The notes below the pieces were generated by a model. That model saw nothing but the letters and a program-made list of their open reading frames with translations, was not told the DNA's origin and made no database searches. The position numbers were made by a program, and so were the translations under genes. Positions 1 to 4,689 of a stretch of 4,689 nt of DNA are shown here, piece by piece. How positions within the stretch are numbered: position 1 is the stretch's first letter; each line of letters begins with the position of its first letter. Source of the stretch: a virus (lineage: Duplodnaviria > Heunggongvirae > Uroviricota > Caudoviricetes); the IMG/VR virus record IMGVR_UViG_2667527792_000010; one strand, 5' to 3'.

Positions 1-399
1 ATGTACGTGATGCTGTGGCGCATTGATGCCGGAGATTATGCAGGGGCGCTGGAGATCGGGCGTCATGCCCTGCGTCATGGCTGGGTGATGCCGCTGGGTA
101 ACCGCAACGTGCAGACCGTGCTGGCAGAGGAAATGGCAGACGCGGCGCAGAGCGCAATGCTTGCCGCCACCGGCTTTGATGCCGATCTGTTGCTGCAGAC
201 GCTGGAGCTGACAGACGGTCTGGATATGCCGGACCAGTCACGGGCGCGTCTGCATAAAGCGATTGGCGCTGTCCTGAGTGAAAGCAACCCGGCTTCCGCC
301 CTTAATCATCTCAACCATGCGTTACAGCTCGATCCTCGCTGTGGCGTGAAAAAAGACAAACAGCAGCTGGAGCGCAGACTGCGCAATGACAGCCGCTGA
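1..399 (+). CDS. M: Phage terminase endonuclease subunit (P2 gpM-like), C-terminal part; probably 5'-truncated by the window edge
   Basis: Open frame from position 1 to TGA at 397-399. The translation resembles the C-terminal region of P2-family terminase small/endonuclease subunits, and the gene sits directly upstream of gpL and gpX homologs as in P2. The window happens to begin with ATG, but the expected protein is longer (about 240 aa), so the true start is likely upstream. Confidence 0.7.
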   Translation: MYVMLWRIDAGDYAGALEIGRHALRHGWVMPLGNRNVQTVLAEEMADAAQSAMLAATGFDADLLLQTLELTDGLDMPDQSRARLHKAIGAVLSESNPASALNHLNHALQLDPRCGVKKDKQQLERRLRNDSR

Positions 400-404
400 C
401 AGAA

Positions 405-429
405 CGTGCCCCCGCGCACGGGCGGCACG
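405..429 (+). other. GC-rich nested inverted repeat (potential RNA hairpin) in the M-L intergenic region
   Basis: Seen directly: CGTGCC (405-410) pairs with GGCACG (424-429), and CCCG (411-414) pairs with CGGG (419-422), around a CGCA loop with a one-base bulge. There is no downstream U-run, so it is not a canonical intrinsic terminator. Confidence 0.3.
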
Positions 430-494
430 GGGTGGCGAAAGGCACTGCCACATCAAAACCCCGTCCACCGCCCTCTATTTCAGGAGAAAGCAGC

Positions 495-959
495 ATGAAG
501 TTTGTTGCGCCAGAACAGGCACCAGAACAGGCGGAAATCATCAGGAATACGCCGTTCTGGCCTGATGTGGACCTGTCGGAGTTTCGCAGCGTGATGCGCA
601 CTGACGGCACGGTGACGCAGCCGCGTTTAAAGCAGGTTGCGCTGTCGGCAATTTCGGAGGTCAACGCAGAGCTGTATGAGTTTCGCAGACGCCAGCAGAT
701 GCTGGGGTATGCCTCGCTGGCAGAAGTTCCGGCGGAACAGCTGGACGGCAAAAGTGAGCGCATTCAGCACTATTTCAACGCGGTTTACTGCTGGGCACGC
801 GCCATGCTCAACGAACGATACCAGGACTATGACGCCACGGCGTCCGGTGTGAAGCGGGGCGAGGAACTGGCGGAAGCAAGCGGTGATTTGTGGCGTGACG
901 CCCGCTGGGCCATCAGCCGGGTGCAGGATGCGCCGCACTGCACAGTGGAGCTTATCTGA
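495..959 (+). CDS. L: Phage head completion/stabilization protein (P2 gpL-like)
   Basis: ATG at 495 is preceded by AGGAG (483-487) at 7-nt spacing; stop TGA at 957-959 overlaps the next start (TGATG). Position between M and X matches P2 order. The ORF track extends the frame to a GTG at 432, which lacks an RBS and lies immediately after the hairpin, so the 495 start is preferred. Confidence 0.7.
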   Translation: MKFVAPEQAPEQAEIIRNTPFWPDVDLSEFRSVMRTDGTVTQPRLKQVALSAISEVNAELYEFRRRQQMLGYASLAEVPAEQLDGKSERIQHYFNAVYCWARAMLNERYQDYDATASGVKRGEELAEASGDLWRDARWAISRVQDAPHCTVELI

Positions 960-1162
960 TGAAAGTGCGTGCGCATCAGTATGACACGGTGGACGCGCTT
1001 TGCTGGCGTCATTACGGGCGCACGCAGGGGGTCACGGAGCAGGTACTGAAGGCAAATCCGGGGCTTGCCGAATACGGCCCCTTTTTACCTCACGGGCTGC
1101 AGGTGGAGCTGCCGGACATTCCGACCACCACCACCGTGCAGACCGTCCAGCTATGGGACTGA
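959..1162 (+). CDS. X: Phage tail protein X (P2 gpX-like)
   Basis: 67-aa ORF, the same length as P2 gpX as I recall it, with a Phage_tail_X-like N-terminus (MKVRAHQYDTVDALCWRHYG). Start overlaps the L stop; conserved position before the lysis cassette. Confidence 0.8.
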   Translation: MKVRAHQYDTVDALCWRHYGRTQGVTEQVLKANPGLAEYGPFLPHGLQVELPDIPTTTTVQTVQLWD

Positions 1163-1165
1163 ATT

Positions 1166-1381
1166 ATGACGCTTGAGCGAATCAGCGCCTTTATCACGTA
1201 TTGCATCGCCGTCGTGCTGGCCTGGCTGGGCGATTTGTCCATCAAGGATGCCTCAACGCTGGGCGGTCTGATGATTGGTGTACTGATGCTGGCTATCAAC
1301 TGGTACTACAAACACAAATCCTACCTGCTTCTGCGCGACGGGCAGATCTCGCGGGAGGACTATGAATCCATCAATCGTTAA
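1166..1381 (+). CDS. Small class-II holin, candidate pinholin
   Basis: 71-aa product with two hydrophobic segments (SAFITYCIAVVLAWLG and LGGLMIGVLMLAINWYY) and a charged C-terminal tail (RDGQISREDYESINR). It lies immediately upstream of, and overlaps by 20 nt, a SAR-type endolysin gene. Size and topology resemble the phage 21 S21 pinholin class rather than the 93-aa P2 Y holin. Confidence 0.6.
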   Translation: MTLERISAFITYCIAVVLAWLGDLSIKDASTLGGLMIGVLMLAINWYYKHKSYLLLRDGQISREDYESINR

Positions 1382-1874
1382 ACGCTGCCTTGTCGGGGCC
1401 GTGCTGGCTATTGCTGCCACGCTGCCGGGTTTTCAGCAGCTTCACACCTCCGTGGAGGGGCTGAAACTGATTGCTGATTACGAAGGCTGTCGTCTGCAGC
1501 CGTATCAGTGCAGCGCGGGTGTCTGGACCGACGGCATTGGTAATACATCGGGCGTCATTCCCGGCAAAACAATCACGGAACGACAGGCAGCAGAAGGGCT
1601 GATCTCCAACGTGCTGCGTGTGGAGCGGGTACTGGAAAGGTGTGTGAAGCAACTGCCACCACAGAAGGTGTATGACGCTACGGTGTCGTTTGCCTTCAAC
1701 GTGGGGACGGGCAATGCCTGCAGCTCCACGCTGGTGAAATTGCTCAATCAGCGGCGCTGGGCGGATGCGTGCCGACAGTTGCCGCGCTGGGTTTATGTAA
1801 AAGGTGTGTTTAATCAGGGGCTGGATAACCGCCGTGCGCGGGAGATGGCCTGGTGTTTACAGGGAGCAAACTGA
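1362..1874 (+). CDS. SAR endolysin, T4 E-like lysozyme of the P1 Lyz / phage 21 R type
   Basis: GGGAGGA precedes the ATG at 1362. The N-terminus is a weakly hydrophobic, Gly/Ala-rich signal-anchor-release segment (KRCLVGAVLAIAATLPG). This is followed by a lysozyme catalytic region (VEGLKLIADYEGCRLQPYQCSAGVWTDGIGNT, with candidate E32/D39/T56 triad) and a C-terminal FNVGTGN...TLVKLLNQ...W motif, all closely resembling P1 Lyz and R21. Confidence 0.85.
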   Translation: MNPSIVKRCLVGAVLAIAATLPGFQQLHTSVEGLKLIADYEGCRLQPYQCSAGVWTDGIGNTSGVIPGKTITERQAAEGLISNVLRVERVLERCVKQLPPQKVYDATVSFAFNVGTGNACSSTLVKLLNQRRWADACRQLPRWVYVKGVFNQGLDNRRAREMAWCLQGAN

Positions 1875-1875
1875 A

Positions 1876-2253
1876 ATGAAAAAGAAATTAATCAGCGGAC
1901 TGTTTCTGATGTTATGGATGGCGCTGTTAATCGCAGCAATGGTGTATCCGCAGGGGATTTTTCCGGTACTGGCAGCGTCCGGCGTTTGGGTAGCCTGTTT
2001 GCTGACATGGGCGGTAATTCCGGTAGCACTGGCTGCGTTAATTAAGAATGGCCCGCTCTGGCAGGAGTTAAGGGCATCTTTACTGAAGACAATTACCCGA
2101 AAAGAAAACGTATTTATCAGTTGGGTGATGCGATTGCTGATTGTTGTAAGTCTCGCCTGGACGGGGTGGGCTATTACCCTGGTCTTTTATCTACTGACCG
2201 TTATTGCCTTCTGGATCACCCGTAATCAGATGGCGCAACAGGTAGCAGCATGA
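1876..2253 (+). CDS. lysA: LysA-like polytopic membrane protein (putative lysis-timing regulator or antiholin)
   Basis: ATG at 1876 (MKKKLISG...) lies 1 nt after the lysozyme stop, with GGGAG at 1862-1866. The product is 125 aa with about four hydrophobic transmembrane segments. Its position between endolysin and spanins matches P2 lysA. The ORF-track start at 1804 would overlap the lysozyme and lacks support. Confidence 0.55.
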   Translation: MKKKLISGLFLMLWMALLIAAMVYPQGIFPVLAASGVWVACLLTWAVIPVALAALIKNGPLWQELRASLLKTITRKENVFISWVMRLLIVVSLAWTGWAITLVFYLLTVIAFWITRNQMAQQVAA

Positions 2254-2678
2254 ACCGGTTGCTGCTGGTTGTGCTGGCGTTATTACTGGCGGCGCTGGGC
2301 TGGCAGACGTGGCGGCTGGCTGATGCCAGCCAGACCATTAGCACGCAGGCAGACGAGCTGCAGAGCAAAAGCCAGGCACTGGCAAAGAGCAACAGCCAGC
2401 TTATCAGCCTGTCCATTCTGACTGAAACCAATAACCGGGAGCAGGCGCGGCTCTATGCCGAAGCAGAACAGACCAGCGCGCTGCTGAGACAACGACAACA
2501 CCGGATCGAGGAACTGAAACGTGAGAACGAGGATTTACGCCGCTGGACTGATACTCCTTTGCCTGCTGACATTATCCGGCTGCGGGAACGTCCGACGCTC
2601 ACCGGAGGTGCAGCTTATCGTCAGTGGTTGTCCGCGAGTGACACCGTGTCGGCTGGATCAGGCAGAGCCGCGCACTAA
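2250..2678 (+). CDS. lysB: LysB, Rz-like inner-membrane spanin (i-spanin)
   Basis: ATGA overlap with the lysA stop. N-terminal transmembrane anchor (LLLVVLALLLAALGW) followed by a long charged, Gln/Glu/Arg-rich predicted coiled-coil region. 142 aa; position matches P2 lysB. Confidence 0.7.
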   Translation: MNRLLLVVLALLLAALGWQTWRLADASQTISTQADELQSKSQALAKSNSQLISLSILTETNNREQARLYAEAEQTSALLRQRQHRIEELKRENEDLRRWTDTPLPADIIRLRERPTLTGGAAYRQWLSASDTVSAGSGRAAH

Positions 2679-2811
2679 CGGTGATCTGAACGCGTTGTTG
2701 GATGAAACGGAGGCCGCCTGGGCGGTCTGTGCAGACAAAGTGGACATGATTATTGCGTGTCAGGAGCAAAACAGTGAACAAACCACAATCCCTGCGCCAC
2801 GCCCTCAATAA
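2521..2811 (+). CDS. lysC: LysC, Rz1-like outer-membrane lipoprotein spanin (o-spanin), in an alternative frame overlapping lysB and R
   Basis: GTG at 2521 is preceded by GAGGA (2508-2512). The product opens with a lipoprotein signal peptide (MRTRIYAAGLILLCLLTLSG|C) with lipobox L-S-G-C, and the mature part is Pro/Cys-containing. The frame starts inside lysB and ends at TAA 2809-2811, inside the start of R. Confidence 0.65.
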   Translation: MRTRIYAAGLILLCLLTLSGCGNVRRSPEVQLIVSGCPRVTPCRLDQAEPRTNGDLNALLDETEAAWAVCADKVDMIIACQEQNSEQTTIPAPRPQ

Positions 2812-3205
2812 AGCGGTGCCTTATGTCCGCAATAACCCGGACAAACTGCATCTGTTTGTGGATAACGGTTCGCTGGTTGCCACGGGGGCCAGCTCCATGT
2901 CGTGGGAGTACCGTTACACCCTGAACGCGGTGATTGAGGATTTCAGCGGCGACCAGAATCTGCTGATGGCCCCGGTTTTGCTGTGGCTGAGGGATAACCA
3001 GCCCGATGCCATCAATAACCCGGCGTTACGGGAAAAACTATTCACCTTTGAGGTGGATATTCTGCGCAACGATGTCTGTGATATCAGCCTGAACCTGCAA
3101 CTGACGGAGCGTGTGCTGGTCAGCACTGACGGTAGTGTGTCGAGTGTTGAAGCTATAGCGGAACCTGATGAACCTGAAGAAATGTGGACGGTGAAACGTG
3201 GCTGA
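2774..3205 (+). CDS. R: Phage tail completion protein R (P2 gpR-like)
   Basis: GTG at 2774 with AGGAG (2762-2766) at 7-nt spacing. The N-terminus (VNKPQSLRHALNKAV...NPDKLHLFVDNGS) resembles P2 gpR as I recall it. Conserved position after the lysis cassette. The ORF-track TTG at 2753 is an in-frame upstream alternative, less likely. Confidence 0.8.
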   Translation: MNKPQSLRHALNKAVPYVRNNPDKLHLFVDNGSLVATGASSMSWEYRYTLNAVIEDFSGDQNLLMAPVLLWLRDNQPDAINNPALREKLFTFEVDILRNDVCDISLNLQLTERVLVSTDGSVSSVEAIAEPDEPEEMWTVKRG

Positions 3206-3644
3206 ACTGCAGAAGGTGGACGACTGGCTGAGTGCCTTGCTGGCGAATCTGGAACCAGCCACGAGAAGCCGCATGATGCGCCAGCTGGCGCAGGAACTGC
3301 GCCGGACACAGCAGCAGAATATCAGGATGCAGCGCAATCCAGATGGCAGCAGTTATGAACCGCGCAGGGTAACAGCACGCAGCAAGAAGGGGCGCATCAA
3401 ACGTCAGATGTTTGCAAAGCTGCGCACCACAAAATACCTGAAAACTGCCGCCAGCACCGACTCTGCCAGCGTGCAGTTTGAAGGCAAGGTGCAGCGCATT
3501 GCCCGCGTTCACCATTACGGCCTGCGAGATCGCGTCAGTCGTAAGGGACCGGAGGTGCGTTACGCAGAGCGTCGCCTTCTGGGTGTAAATGATGATGTTG
3601 AGGCAATGACCCGCGACATGATTCTGCAATGGCTGGCGGGGTGA
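3198..3644 (+). CDS. S: Phage tail completion / virion morphogenesis protein S (P2 gpS-like)
   Basis: GTG at 3198 overlaps the R stop by 8 nt. The 148-aa basic product is close to the roughly 150 aa I recall for P2 gpS. Position between R and V matches P2 order. The exact start is uncertain because the RBS is weak. Confidence 0.75.
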   Translation: MAELQKVDDWLSALLANLEPATRSRMMRQLAQELRRTQQQNIRMQRNPDGSSYEPRRVTARSKKGRIKRQMFAKLRTTKYLKTAASTDSASVQFEGKVQRIARVHHYGLRDRVSRKGPEVRYAERRLLGVNDDVEAMTRDMILQWLAG

Positions 3645-3648
3645 TCTT

Positions 3649-3666
3649 TGTATCAGCACTGATACA
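3649..3666 (+). promoter_or_regulatory. TGT-N12-ACA dyad, candidate Ogr/Delta-type activator site of the P2 late promoter for the V-W-J operon
   Basis: Seen directly: TGT (3649-3651), 12 nt (ATCAGCACTGAT, itself palindromic), ACA (3664-3666), in the 68-nt S-V gap. P2 late promoters are reported to carry a TGT-N12-ACA element centred near -55 and to lack a -35 hexamer; the S-V gap is the expected location of the V promoter. Confidence 0.5.
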
Positions 3667-3712
3667 AGTTGCAGCACTGCCGCCTTTCTTCCCCTGATGG
3701 CAACCTTTCCCT

Positions 3713-4291
3713 ATGAACGCACAATTAACCGAAATCATGCGCCTTATCACCAACCTGATCCGCACAGGGGTAGTCACCGAAGTGGACAGGGAAAACTGGC
3801 TTTGCCGGGTGAAAACGGGCGAGCTTGAAACCAACTGGATCAGCTGGCTGACGCTGCGTGCCGGGAATGCCCGTACATGGTGGCGACCATCGGAAGGTGA
3901 GCAGGTGGTGCTGCTGAGTCTGGGCGGCAATCTGGAAACCGCCTTTGCGCTGCCCGCTGTCTATTCGAATCAGTTCGCACCACCGTCGACGTCGGCGGAC
4001 GCCTGCGTGACAGAACATCCTGACGGTGGCTGGTTTGAATACGAACCCGCCACCGGGCGCTGGTATGTCAGGGGCATCAAATCCATGGTCATTGAGGCTG
4101 CTGACAACATCACCATGAAAACCAGTGAGTTTGTACTGGAGGCTGACCGCACGCGCATTAACAGCGAAGTGGTGATCAATGGTGGCGTTACCCAGGGCGG
4201 CGGAGCGATGAGTTCTAACGGGATCGTGGTTGATGCGCATCAGCATACTGGCGTCCTGAAAGGCGGCGATACAACCGGAGGCCCGATATGA
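3713..4291 (+). CDS. V: Phage baseplate assembly protein V (P2 gpV-like baseplate spike)
   Basis: 192-aa ORF. The N-terminal region (LIRTGVVTEVDRENWLCRVKTGELETNWISWLTLRAGNARTWWRPSEGEQVVLL) is characteristic of the Phage_base_V family and resembles P2 gpV as I recall it. The first in-frame start is ATG 3713, immediately after an in-frame TGA; no Shine-Dalgarno sequence is visible upstream. Confidence 0.85.
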   Translation: MNAQLTEIMRLITNLIRTGVVTEVDRENWLCRVKTGELETNWISWLTLRAGNARTWWRPSEGEQVVLLSLGGNLETAFALPAVYSNQFAPPSTSADACVTEHPDGGWFEYEPATGRWYVRGIKSMVIEAADNITMKTSEFVLEADRTRINSEVVINGGVTQGGGAMSSNGIVVDAHQHTGVLKGGDTTGGPI

Positions 4292-4689
4292 CGCTTTATA
4301 GCGGGATGAACAATACCAGCGGCAAAGTCATTACTGATATTGATCATCTGCGCCAGTCGGTGCGGGACATTCTGCTGACACCGCAGGGTAGCCGTATTGC
4401 CCGCCGGGAATATGGTTCCCTGCTGTCGGCACTGATAGATCAGCCACAAAATCCGGCATTACGCCTGCAGGTCATGTCGGCAGTGTATGTGGCGCTGAGT
4501 CGCTGGGAGCCACGGTTGACGCTGGATTCCATCACCATCAACAGCAATTTTGACGGTTCAATGGTGGTGGAGCTGACCGGGCGGCGGAATAACGGTGTGC
4601 CTGTGTCCCTTTCCGTATCGGCTGAAAGGCAGCCAGAAAATCAGTGCCACAAACAAAGCAATGAGCCAGAACAGCGGATCGCGCAACAT
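4288..4689 (+). CDS. W: Phage baseplate protein W (GPW/gp25 family), 3' end beyond the window
   Basis: ATG at 4288 overlaps the V stop (ATGA). The translation ([46 protein letters not shown]...) matches the GPW/gp25 family. The frame stays open for 134 codons to the window end, so the stop is not observed. Confidence 0.8.

Follow-up and report, generated by a model that had tools for sequence, protein, structure and literature searches.

The 4,689-nucleotide stretch IMGVR_UViG_2667527792_000010 (hereafter, at its full length, the window) contains the lysis cassette of a P2-family prophage of Escherichia coli (Peduoviridae; Fels-2 / Elveevirus / Wadgaonvirus clade). The cassette is located in the late 'O-operon', between the tail genes X and R, and consists of five genes. 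The first two encode a holin of the HP1 family and a lysozyme of the P1 Lyz type with an N-terminal signal-anchor-release (SAR) domain, and take the place of the unrelated holin Y and endolysin K of phage P2. The other three, lysA, lysB and lysC, belong to the P2 families. This reading as a whole, in which the holin-lysozyme pair has been exchanged as a module, is considered probable, with good confidence.

All five open reading frames (ORFs) of the cassette are intact and point in one direction, and an annotated E. coli prophage carries them with 100% identity. This identity and the strong family matches argue that they are true genes and not chance reading frames. The initial annotation had placed five lysis ORFs at 1166-2811, and its ORFs and coordinates proved correct, because the gene string of positions 1-4619 matches that of a prophage of E. 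coli A28 and of its relatives. The genes are as follows.

1166-1381, + strand: holin, 71 amino acids (PF16080, phrog_20)
1362-1874, + strand: lysozyme, 170 amino acids (PF00959, phrog_7)
1876-2253, + strand: lysA, 125 amino acids (phrog_162, NF038378, PF28015)
2250-2678, + strand: lysB, 142 amino acids, predicted inner-membrane spanin subunit (i-spanin; TIGR03495, phrog_89)
2521-2811, + strand: lysC, 96 amino acids, predicted outer-membrane spanin subunit (o-spanin), GTG start, +1 frame relative to lysB (PF23793, NF038368, phrog_456/952)

Comparison with the cassette of phage P2

The window was compared gene by gene with P2 (NC_001895) at the protein level, using BLASTP and PHROG families. The P2 cassette, comprising Y, K, lysA, lysB and lysC, has the same position in the late operon, and the X stop and the holin ATG of the window are separated by 3 nucleotides, exactly as X and Y are in P2. 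The L, X, R, S, V and W proteins of P2 are 39-61% identical to their counterparts in the window. The P2 synteny proposed for the flanks is therefore borne out by these identities and by the matches to the GPL, Tail_X, GpR, Tail_S and Base_V families.

The two cassettes differ in their first two genes. P2 Y is a 93-amino-acid holin with three hydrophobic segments and belongs to phrog_175, whereas the window holin belongs to phrog_20; BLASTP of the window holin against Y gave nothing significant (E = 0.011 over 52 amino acids). P2 K is lambda-R-like, belongs to phrog_90 and has an N-terminus without a strongly hydrophobic segment, whereas the window lysozyme is a member of phrog_7, and its BLASTP comparison with K found no match better than 0.4. 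Neither protein is thus an ortholog of its P2 counterpart, in agreement with the initial annotation, which had regarded the pair as of another type than Y and K. The retention of lysA, lysB and lysC was also correctly predicted: the three products share phrog_162, phrog_89 and phrog_456/952, respectively, with those of P2, and score above the cut-offs of NF038378, TIGR03495 and NF038368. A BLASTP match of the window LysA to P2 L (E 8e-4) was set aside as compositional, the two proteins being unrelated.

Exchange of the module among the Peduoviridae

The exchange of the holin-lysozyme module is demonstrated by phage Midge, because this phage combines P2-like flanks with a holin and a lysozyme of the window type. 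In the flanks, Midge is closest to P2, with amino acid identities of 67% for L, 75% for X, 61% for LysB and 73% for LysC. The nucleotide similarity of the two phages, 71-73%, stops within 4 nucleotides of the end of X and restarts inside lysB. Between X and lysB, Midge has a class II holin and a SAR lysozyme that are 29% and 63% identical, respectively, to those of the window, and a LysA that is 43% identical to P2 LysA. These comparisons indicate that the module has been exchanged among Peduoviridae lineages in the slot also used by Y and K, and no direction is assigned to the exchange.

The exchange is old, widespread and clade-wide and is not peculiar to the window. Within the Fels-2 / Elveevirus / Wadgaonvirus clade the holins are 80-97% and the lysozymes 91-98% identical to those of the window. 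Searches with tblastn found 84 phage records with the window-type holin and 129 with the Y type. All four combinations of the pair with lysA exist: Y/K with lysA in P2, Y/K without lysA in 186 and PSP3, the SAR pair with lysA in the window, and the SAR pair without lysA in Cartapus. A SAR endolysin was considered for PSP3 and rejected, the PSP3 record showing P2-type Y/K.

The history might also have run in reverse, with the HP1-type holin and SAR lysozyme being the older pair in the Peduoviridae and P2, 186 and PSP3 having gained Y and the lambda-R-like K. The deep-branching Haemophilus phage HP1 has a phrog_20 holin, its Lyz-like SAR lysozyme shares the set of cysteines (34% identity, E 3.7e-25), and the 84 records with the window-type pair extend over five host genera (Klebsiella, Yersinia, Escherichia, Salmonella and Erwinia). 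The G+C content (GC) of the holin gene, 0.53, and of the lysozyme gene, 0.57, is close to that of the flanks, and there is therefore no sign of a recent import. Against this order of events, the 129 records of the Y type make it no less frequent, and the HP1 pair is found elsewhere in the genome, after the tail sheath and tube genes, and may therefore be an independent acquisition. The reverse direction is a serious candidate, if not the favored one.

The lysozyme

The lysozyme is a GH24 muramidase (PF00959, 6e-39; 133.7 bits, gathering threshold (GA) 22.3), and its gene overlaps the holin gene by 20 nucleotides. Its best sequence match in the PDB is P1 Lyz (1XJT, E 5.5e-26), followed by the endolysin of phage 21, R21 (3HDE, 4e-17). 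In the HMMER alignment to 1XJT, the catalytic and caging residues Glu41 (1482-1484), Cys43 (1488-1490), Cys50 (1509-1511) and Thr56 (1527-1529) are aligned with Glu42, Cys44, Cys51 and Thr57 of P1 Lyz, and the active-site stretch reads yEGCrlqPYqCsAGVWTDGIGNT versus aEGCRRDPYMCPAGVWTDGIGNT. In close homologs, Cys9, Cys50 and Glu41 are invariant and Cys43 is at least 90% conserved. Among 61 diverged sequences, Glu41 is invariant and Thr56 is at least 90% conserved.

The predicted SAR domain consists of codons 9-24 (CLVGAVLAIAATLPGF, nucleotides 1386-1433), which directly follow Lys7-Arg8 and contain no lipobox. The N-terminus thus has K7-R8 and then C9-LVGAVLAIAATLPGF, the codon of Cys9 occupying 1386-1388. 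The mean Kyte-Doolittle hydropathy (KD) of the domain is 2.11 with 44% G/A/S/T, compared to 2.07 and 53% in the SAR domain of P1 Lyz; the assignment is a judgement from composition, and all transmembrane domain (TMD) and SAR calls given here rest on hydropathy scales.

A structure predicted with AlphaFold 2 (AF2) from the 61 diverged sequences has a mean confidence score (pLDDT) of 94.1, and residues 11-30 score 93-97. Its N-terminal helix, residues 11-26, is packed on the catalytic domain. The top Foldseek match of the model is 1XJT, the full-length active form of P1 Lyz, with a template modeling score (TM) of 0.85 over 173 columns that include the N-terminal helix. The next matches are two full-length SAR endolysins, RrrD and R21 (TM 0.74-0.79; R21 0.79). 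An alignment of just 20 sequences, all sharing 80% identity or more, had given a model with a pLDDT of 48.8, which was discarded.

P1 Lyz reportedly is kept inactive in its membrane-tethered form by a Cys44-Cys51 disulfide that cages the catalytic Cys51, and the SAR residue Cys13 is said to isomerize this disulfide after release. The alignment and the model suggest that the lysozyme of the window is a SAR endolysin of this disulfide-caged type. It shares with P1 Lyz the GH24 fold family, the Cys-bearing N-terminal SAR helix and the EGC...C...T motif, and differs in that the overall identity is about 35%. The genomic context is also unlike that of the window, P1 lyz being adjacent to lydD. Phage 21 resembles the window in gene arrangement, with a small two-TMD holin gene directly upstream of, and overlapping, a GH24 SAR endolysin gene. 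R21 is regulated by Cys-independent refolding. The window enzyme differs from R21 in having the P1-Lyz-type Cys caging pattern, with Cys, not Asp, at the second catalytic position. The initial annotation, which had described a T4 E-like lysozyme with an N-terminal SAR-type domain, was accurate, with P1 Lyz and R21 as the best solved relatives. One detail fits the P1 model poorly: Cys9 is out of strict register with Cys13 of P1 Lyz, since it lies 32 residues before the catalytic Glu and the P1 residue 29, that is, 3 residues further away.

It might be argued that the N-terminal segment is a cleavable Sec signal peptide, in which case the enzyme would just be secreted and its activity would be under another kind of control. 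The segment does have an n-region (K7, R8) and an h-region of 13-16 residues, and the small residues A16, A18, A19, T20 and G23 might form a weak cleavage site; a canonical AxA, however, is absent after the full h-region. Relatives with an N-terminal TMD were reduced to cluster representatives sharing at most 50% identity; a Cys within this TMD is found in 22 of 23 of these sequences with the EGC motif and in 0 of 5 without it (Fisher p = 6e-5, uncorrected for phylogeny). A cysteine that tracks the caging motif and is invariant in close homologs would be senseless in a discarded peptide, and its co-occurrence with EGC therefore argues that the N-terminal domain is retained. The fold match points the same way, as the model packs residues 11-26 on the catalytic domain and its similarity to the truncated, secreted and inactive form of P1 Lyz (1XJU) amounts to a TM of 0.56, against 0.85 for the full-length form. 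Cleavage is very improbable for these reasons, and a retained SAR domain is the reading that both sequence and model favor.

Several fused forms of the lysozyme are found in databases. Dozens of lysozyme-LysA fusions of 276-296 amino acids (e.g. P0014, P0018 and P0019) arise by frameshifts at varied positions near the lysozyme stop (about 1840-1876) that lead into an upstream extension of the lysA frame (ORF 1804-2253). Because almost all of them are singletons and many come from read-level assemblies, errors of sequencing or the decay of prophages probably account for them, and not a programmed fusion. In one relative (P0001) the holin and the lysozyme are fused through a frameshift. In another, a 288-amino-acid protein of E. 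coli (P0051), the lysozyme is joined to a Phage_GPD (late control D) domain, which indicates a prophage remnant with a large deletion from the lysozyme to gene D.

The holin and the pinholin question

The 71-amino-acid product of the first gene is assigned to the class II (two-TMD) holins of the HP1 family. It matches PF16080 with 33.0 bits (GA 28.8), and the identical protein in RefSeq is named 'HP1 family phage holin'. Hydropathy places TMD1 at residues 6-22 (nucleotides 1181-1231) and TMD2 at residues 31-48 (nucleotides 1256-1309), so that the two TMDs of the initial annotation are confirmed. The C-terminus is basic (KHK...R), and an N-in/C-in topology is inferred from the charge distribution.

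The label 'pinholin-like', which the protein had also been given, is overstated. Pinholin function is plausible by analogy, and is a reasonable expectation because the holin is paired with a SAR endolysin (PMC9025707; PMC6139136). Several observations weigh against it. The match to PF04971, the family of the phage 21 pinholin S21, has 22.2 bits and stays below the GA of 26. An hhalign comparison of the holin family with the S21 family, using profiles built from 40 relatives each and an S21 sequence matched at 100% identity in the database, gave a probability of 45% (E 2e-4) over 51 colinear columns. TMD1 exceeds TMD2 in hydrophobicity; its KD of 2.12 and its 35% G/A/S/T contrast with the 0.52 and 55% of the SAR-like first TMD of S21. 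A dual-start antiholin motif was sought in the holin and was not found, as the reading frame is closed by the X stop two codons before the holin ATG and residues 2-35 include no Met.

The same observations would suit an ordinary class II holin that makes large holes, and lysis would then not follow the pinholin mode. Such a holin would still work with the lysozyme, because SAR endolysins are activated by any depolarizing lesion, and the P1 SAR endolysin functions both with a pinholin and with the canonical holins LydA and LydC (PMC9025707). The family relationships speak for the other side: the holin and S21 share phrog_20, a PHROG that also includes HP1 hol (8.9e-26 for the window protein), and the two have colinear motifs at the N-terminus ('ERIS..I.Y' versus 'DKIS..IAY') and after TMD2 ('NWYYKHK' versus 'NLYFKIK'). 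In addition, pinholin genes usually adjoin SAR endolysin genes (PMC9025707), and hydropathy alone does not exclude the release of TMD1, since the SAR domains of endolysins also have a KD of about 2.1. A large-hole holin is considered rather unlikely, and a small-hole holin of the HP1 family remains the preferred reading. For comparison, the pinholin of P1, LydD, was examined by co-expression with lambda R (PMC9025707).

Two further observations concern the holin. A link between its Cys13, which close homologs conserve to at least 90%, and the thiol chemistry of the endolysin was considered and dropped, because Cys13 is absent from the holins of Midge and vB_YenM_56.17. The holin of the latter, a Yersinia phage without lysA, is a distant relative (L017, 1795-2016) with the annotated N-terminus MGLKMEKISS, possibly an S21-like dual start (Met1...Lys4-Met5). 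The window holin cannot carry such an N-terminal extension, and a trade-off between dual-start antiholins and antiholins encoded by separate genes is possible.

LysA and its variable slot

LysA has four hydrophobic segments, predicted to be TMDs, and is a putative lysis-timing regulator or antiholin. It belongs to phrog_162 (8e-44), as does P2 LysA (1.8e-67), scores 123.6 bits with NF038378 (cut-off 40) and matches PF28015, named 'LysA' in the current Pfam. Its pairwise similarity to P2 LysA is weak (about 23% identity; global alignment z = 5.8 over shuffled sequences), and the two share an MKK...YPQ motif at the N-terminus and a GW..T..YL motif at the C-terminus. The label 'endolysin' that PHROG attaches to phrog_162 looks like a mis-annotation of a membrane protein with four TMDs.

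The slot between the endolysin gene and lysB is a second module, exchanged within the clade separately from the holin-lysozyme pair. The similarity of Fels-2 to the window ends at 1881 and restarts exactly at the ATG of lysB (2250), and the Fels-2 slot holds an unrelated gene of phrog_7356, annotated as two ORFs and probably frameshifted. Cartapus and RE-2010 have no lysA. In MLG42, LysA is 41% identical to that of the window and the products of the neighboring genes are 76-94% identical. The GC of lysA, 0.484, is the lowest in the window, the values elsewhere being 0.53-0.61. The variable segment corresponds to 1876-2253 in the window, 1744-2119 in L004 and 1724-1754 in L005. The initial annotation had limited the exchange to the holin-endolysin pair; this holds for the window compared with P2 but is incomplete, given the separate variation of the lysA slot in Cartapus, Fels-2 and MLG42 and its dip in GC to 0.48.

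A more far-reaching proposal is that LysA acts on timing independently of the holin, e.g. through membrane energization or the release of the SAR endolysin, and that the holin is a distinct class II subtype unlike the S21 pinholin. The first part is suggested by the retention of the family beside two unrelated pairs, Y/K and that of the window, and by its free loss or replacement; the second by the conventionally hydrophobic TMD1 and the absent dual start. The combined proposal is thought improbable.

The LysB/LysC spanin

LysB and LysC are predicted to form a two-component spanin of the 'overlapped' architecture. LysB is Rz-like, matches TIGR03495 with 172 bits (cut-off 92.75) and phrog_89 with 1e-44, has an N-terminal TMD at residues 4-19, and is 33% identical to P2 LysB in the C-terminal half. 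LysC is an Rz1-like lipoprotein (PF23793, 5.2e-16; NF038368, 124 bits, cut-off 27) with the lipobox LSGC at residues 18-21 (nucleotides 2572-2583). Its gene is read in the +1 frame relative to lysB and ends 133 nucleotides past it, within R. The spanin of P2 is likewise overlapped, and the Fels-2 orthologues of LysB and LysC have been curated as overlapped spanins (PMC6139136).

The start of lysC is the GTG at 2521. It has GAGGA 8 nucleotides upstream, and its product, MRTRIYAAG..., aligns from residue 1 with the MRTKIFAAG... of P2; the identity to P2 LysC is 38-41%, and 41% when counted from residue 1. The start given in RefSeq is an internal TTG at 2563 (82 amino acids; L001, 5563), a choice that removes most of the signal peptide. 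In phage 500465-1 merely a 38-amino-acid fragment of lysC is annotated.

The proposed lysis pathway

The pathway of lysis can be outlined by homology. The lysozyme would be exported by Sec through its SAR domain, residues 9-24, and would accumulate inactive and anchored in the inner membrane, the Cys43-Cys50 disulfide occupying the catalytic Cys50 as in P1 Lyz. The holin would build up in the same membrane until, at a programmed moment, it opens holes that abolish the proton-motive force; most probably these would be the small holes of a 'pinholin'. Depolarization would then free the SAR helix from the bilayer, and Cys9 would attack the caging disulfide to form Cys9-Cys43 and liberate Cys50. 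With the SAR helix packed on the catalytic domain, the muramidase would degrade the murein, and LysB in the inner membrane and the outer-membrane lipoprotein LysC would disrupt the outer membrane. In the least certain step, the four-TMD protein LysA may tune the timing.

Related phages and earlier reports

The gene order X-hol-lys-(lysA)-lysB-lysC-R of the window is also that of Fels-2, RE-2010, Cartapus, 500465-1, KP12 and 4LV2017 (Felsduovirus, Elveevirus and Wadgaonvirus). In these phages the holin is 82-97% and the lysozyme 91-98% identical to that of the window. Cassettes of the Fels-2 type differ from that of the window in the lysA slot only, and the window copy is truncated in W; the DNA of Fels-2 is 84-86% identical to the window over the aligned parts. 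The arrangement is real but common, and is already known. The RefSeq notes of Fels-2 mention '2 transmembrane domains; putative holin' and 'similarity to P1 Lyz', and the annotation of Midge (PV287706) has 'holin class II / SAR endolysin / putative antiholin', the last being P2 LysA-like, between X and the spanins. For Klebsiella phage KP12, with 97% identical DNA, a lysis cassette of P2 architecture was described, with an endolysin modeled on 1XJT and a conserved SAR domain; this endolysin was purified and reported to be bacteriolytic, and the nature of its partner as a pinholin was raised as a question (PMC9902359). Lynch et al. 2010 found a non-P2 holin, endolysin and antiholin in P2-like Burkholderia phages, two of three of which, KS14 and KL3, have P2-like LysBC (PMC3091744).

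Since the mosaic replacement of the holin and endolysin with retention of LysB and LysC in P2-like operons is documented, the cassette has little discovery value. The practical gain is in annotation, namely the assignment of the lysozyme as a P1-Lyz-type SAR endolysin (Cys9, Cys43 and Cys50), the label of phrog_162 and the lysC start at 2521.

The source prophage and the flanking genes

Positions 1-4619 of the window are 100% identical to an apparently complete prophage of E. coli A28. Escherichia phage 500465-1 (Peduoviridae, Wadgaonvirus) and the Klebsiella phages KP12 and 4LV2017 are 97-98% identical to it in DNA. The late operon, M-L-X-[lysis]-R-S-V-W, is a gene string on the single + strand with the gene order of the Peduoviridae and matches to P2-family profiles. 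The genes around the cassette are as follows.

1-399, + strand: M', partial gene in the window
495-959, + strand: L (GPL family match)
959-1162, + strand: X, tail gene, left flank of the exchanged module (PF05489, 2.2e-34; 61% amino acid identity to P2 X over all 67 residues)
2774-3205, + strand: R, tail completion gene, right flank (PF06891, 5.9e-46; 53% identity to P2 R)
3198-3644, + strand: S (Tail_S family match)
3713-4291, + strand: V (Base_V family match)
first 110 codons only in the window, + strand: W, counterpart of P2 W

The prophage identity ends exactly at 4619, inside the baseplate gene W. The last 70 bases, 4620-4689, match the 5' end of the chromosomal gene yehW, encoding a glycine betaine ATP-binding cassette (ABC) permease, on the opposite strand. 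The prophage copy thus appears truncated in W, and the cassette may therefore not serve virion release here. On this basis the cassette could belong to a defective prophage remnant abutting yehW that releases no phage and retains at most a suicide or cryptic module. The break at 4619 and the yehW match speak for this reading. Against it, the five lysis ORFs are intact and identical to those of the A28 prophage, and the W'/yehW junction occurs in 0 of 5,426 complete E. coli genomes, has no exact match among the GTDB species representatives and is absent from the contigs with an identical gpV, in all of which W is intact. As it is unmatched elsewhere, the junction may be an artefact of the assembly or of the window. 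Its origin would be either a rare deletion that cut the prophage short or a chimera of the assembly, and a defective remnant is regarded as doubtful. The junction yields a chimeric 43-amino-acid ORF, 4558-4689, on the minus strand.

A scan of the window for promoters and terminators gave no signal over the shuffled background (3 promoter-like sites, 2.2 expected; 7 terminator-like sites, 3.9 expected). The S-V intergenic region (3645-3712) has just 68 base pairs (bp), as in 186 and PSP3, and contains no orf30; in P2, the non-essential orf30 (786 bp) is located between S and V on the opposite strand.

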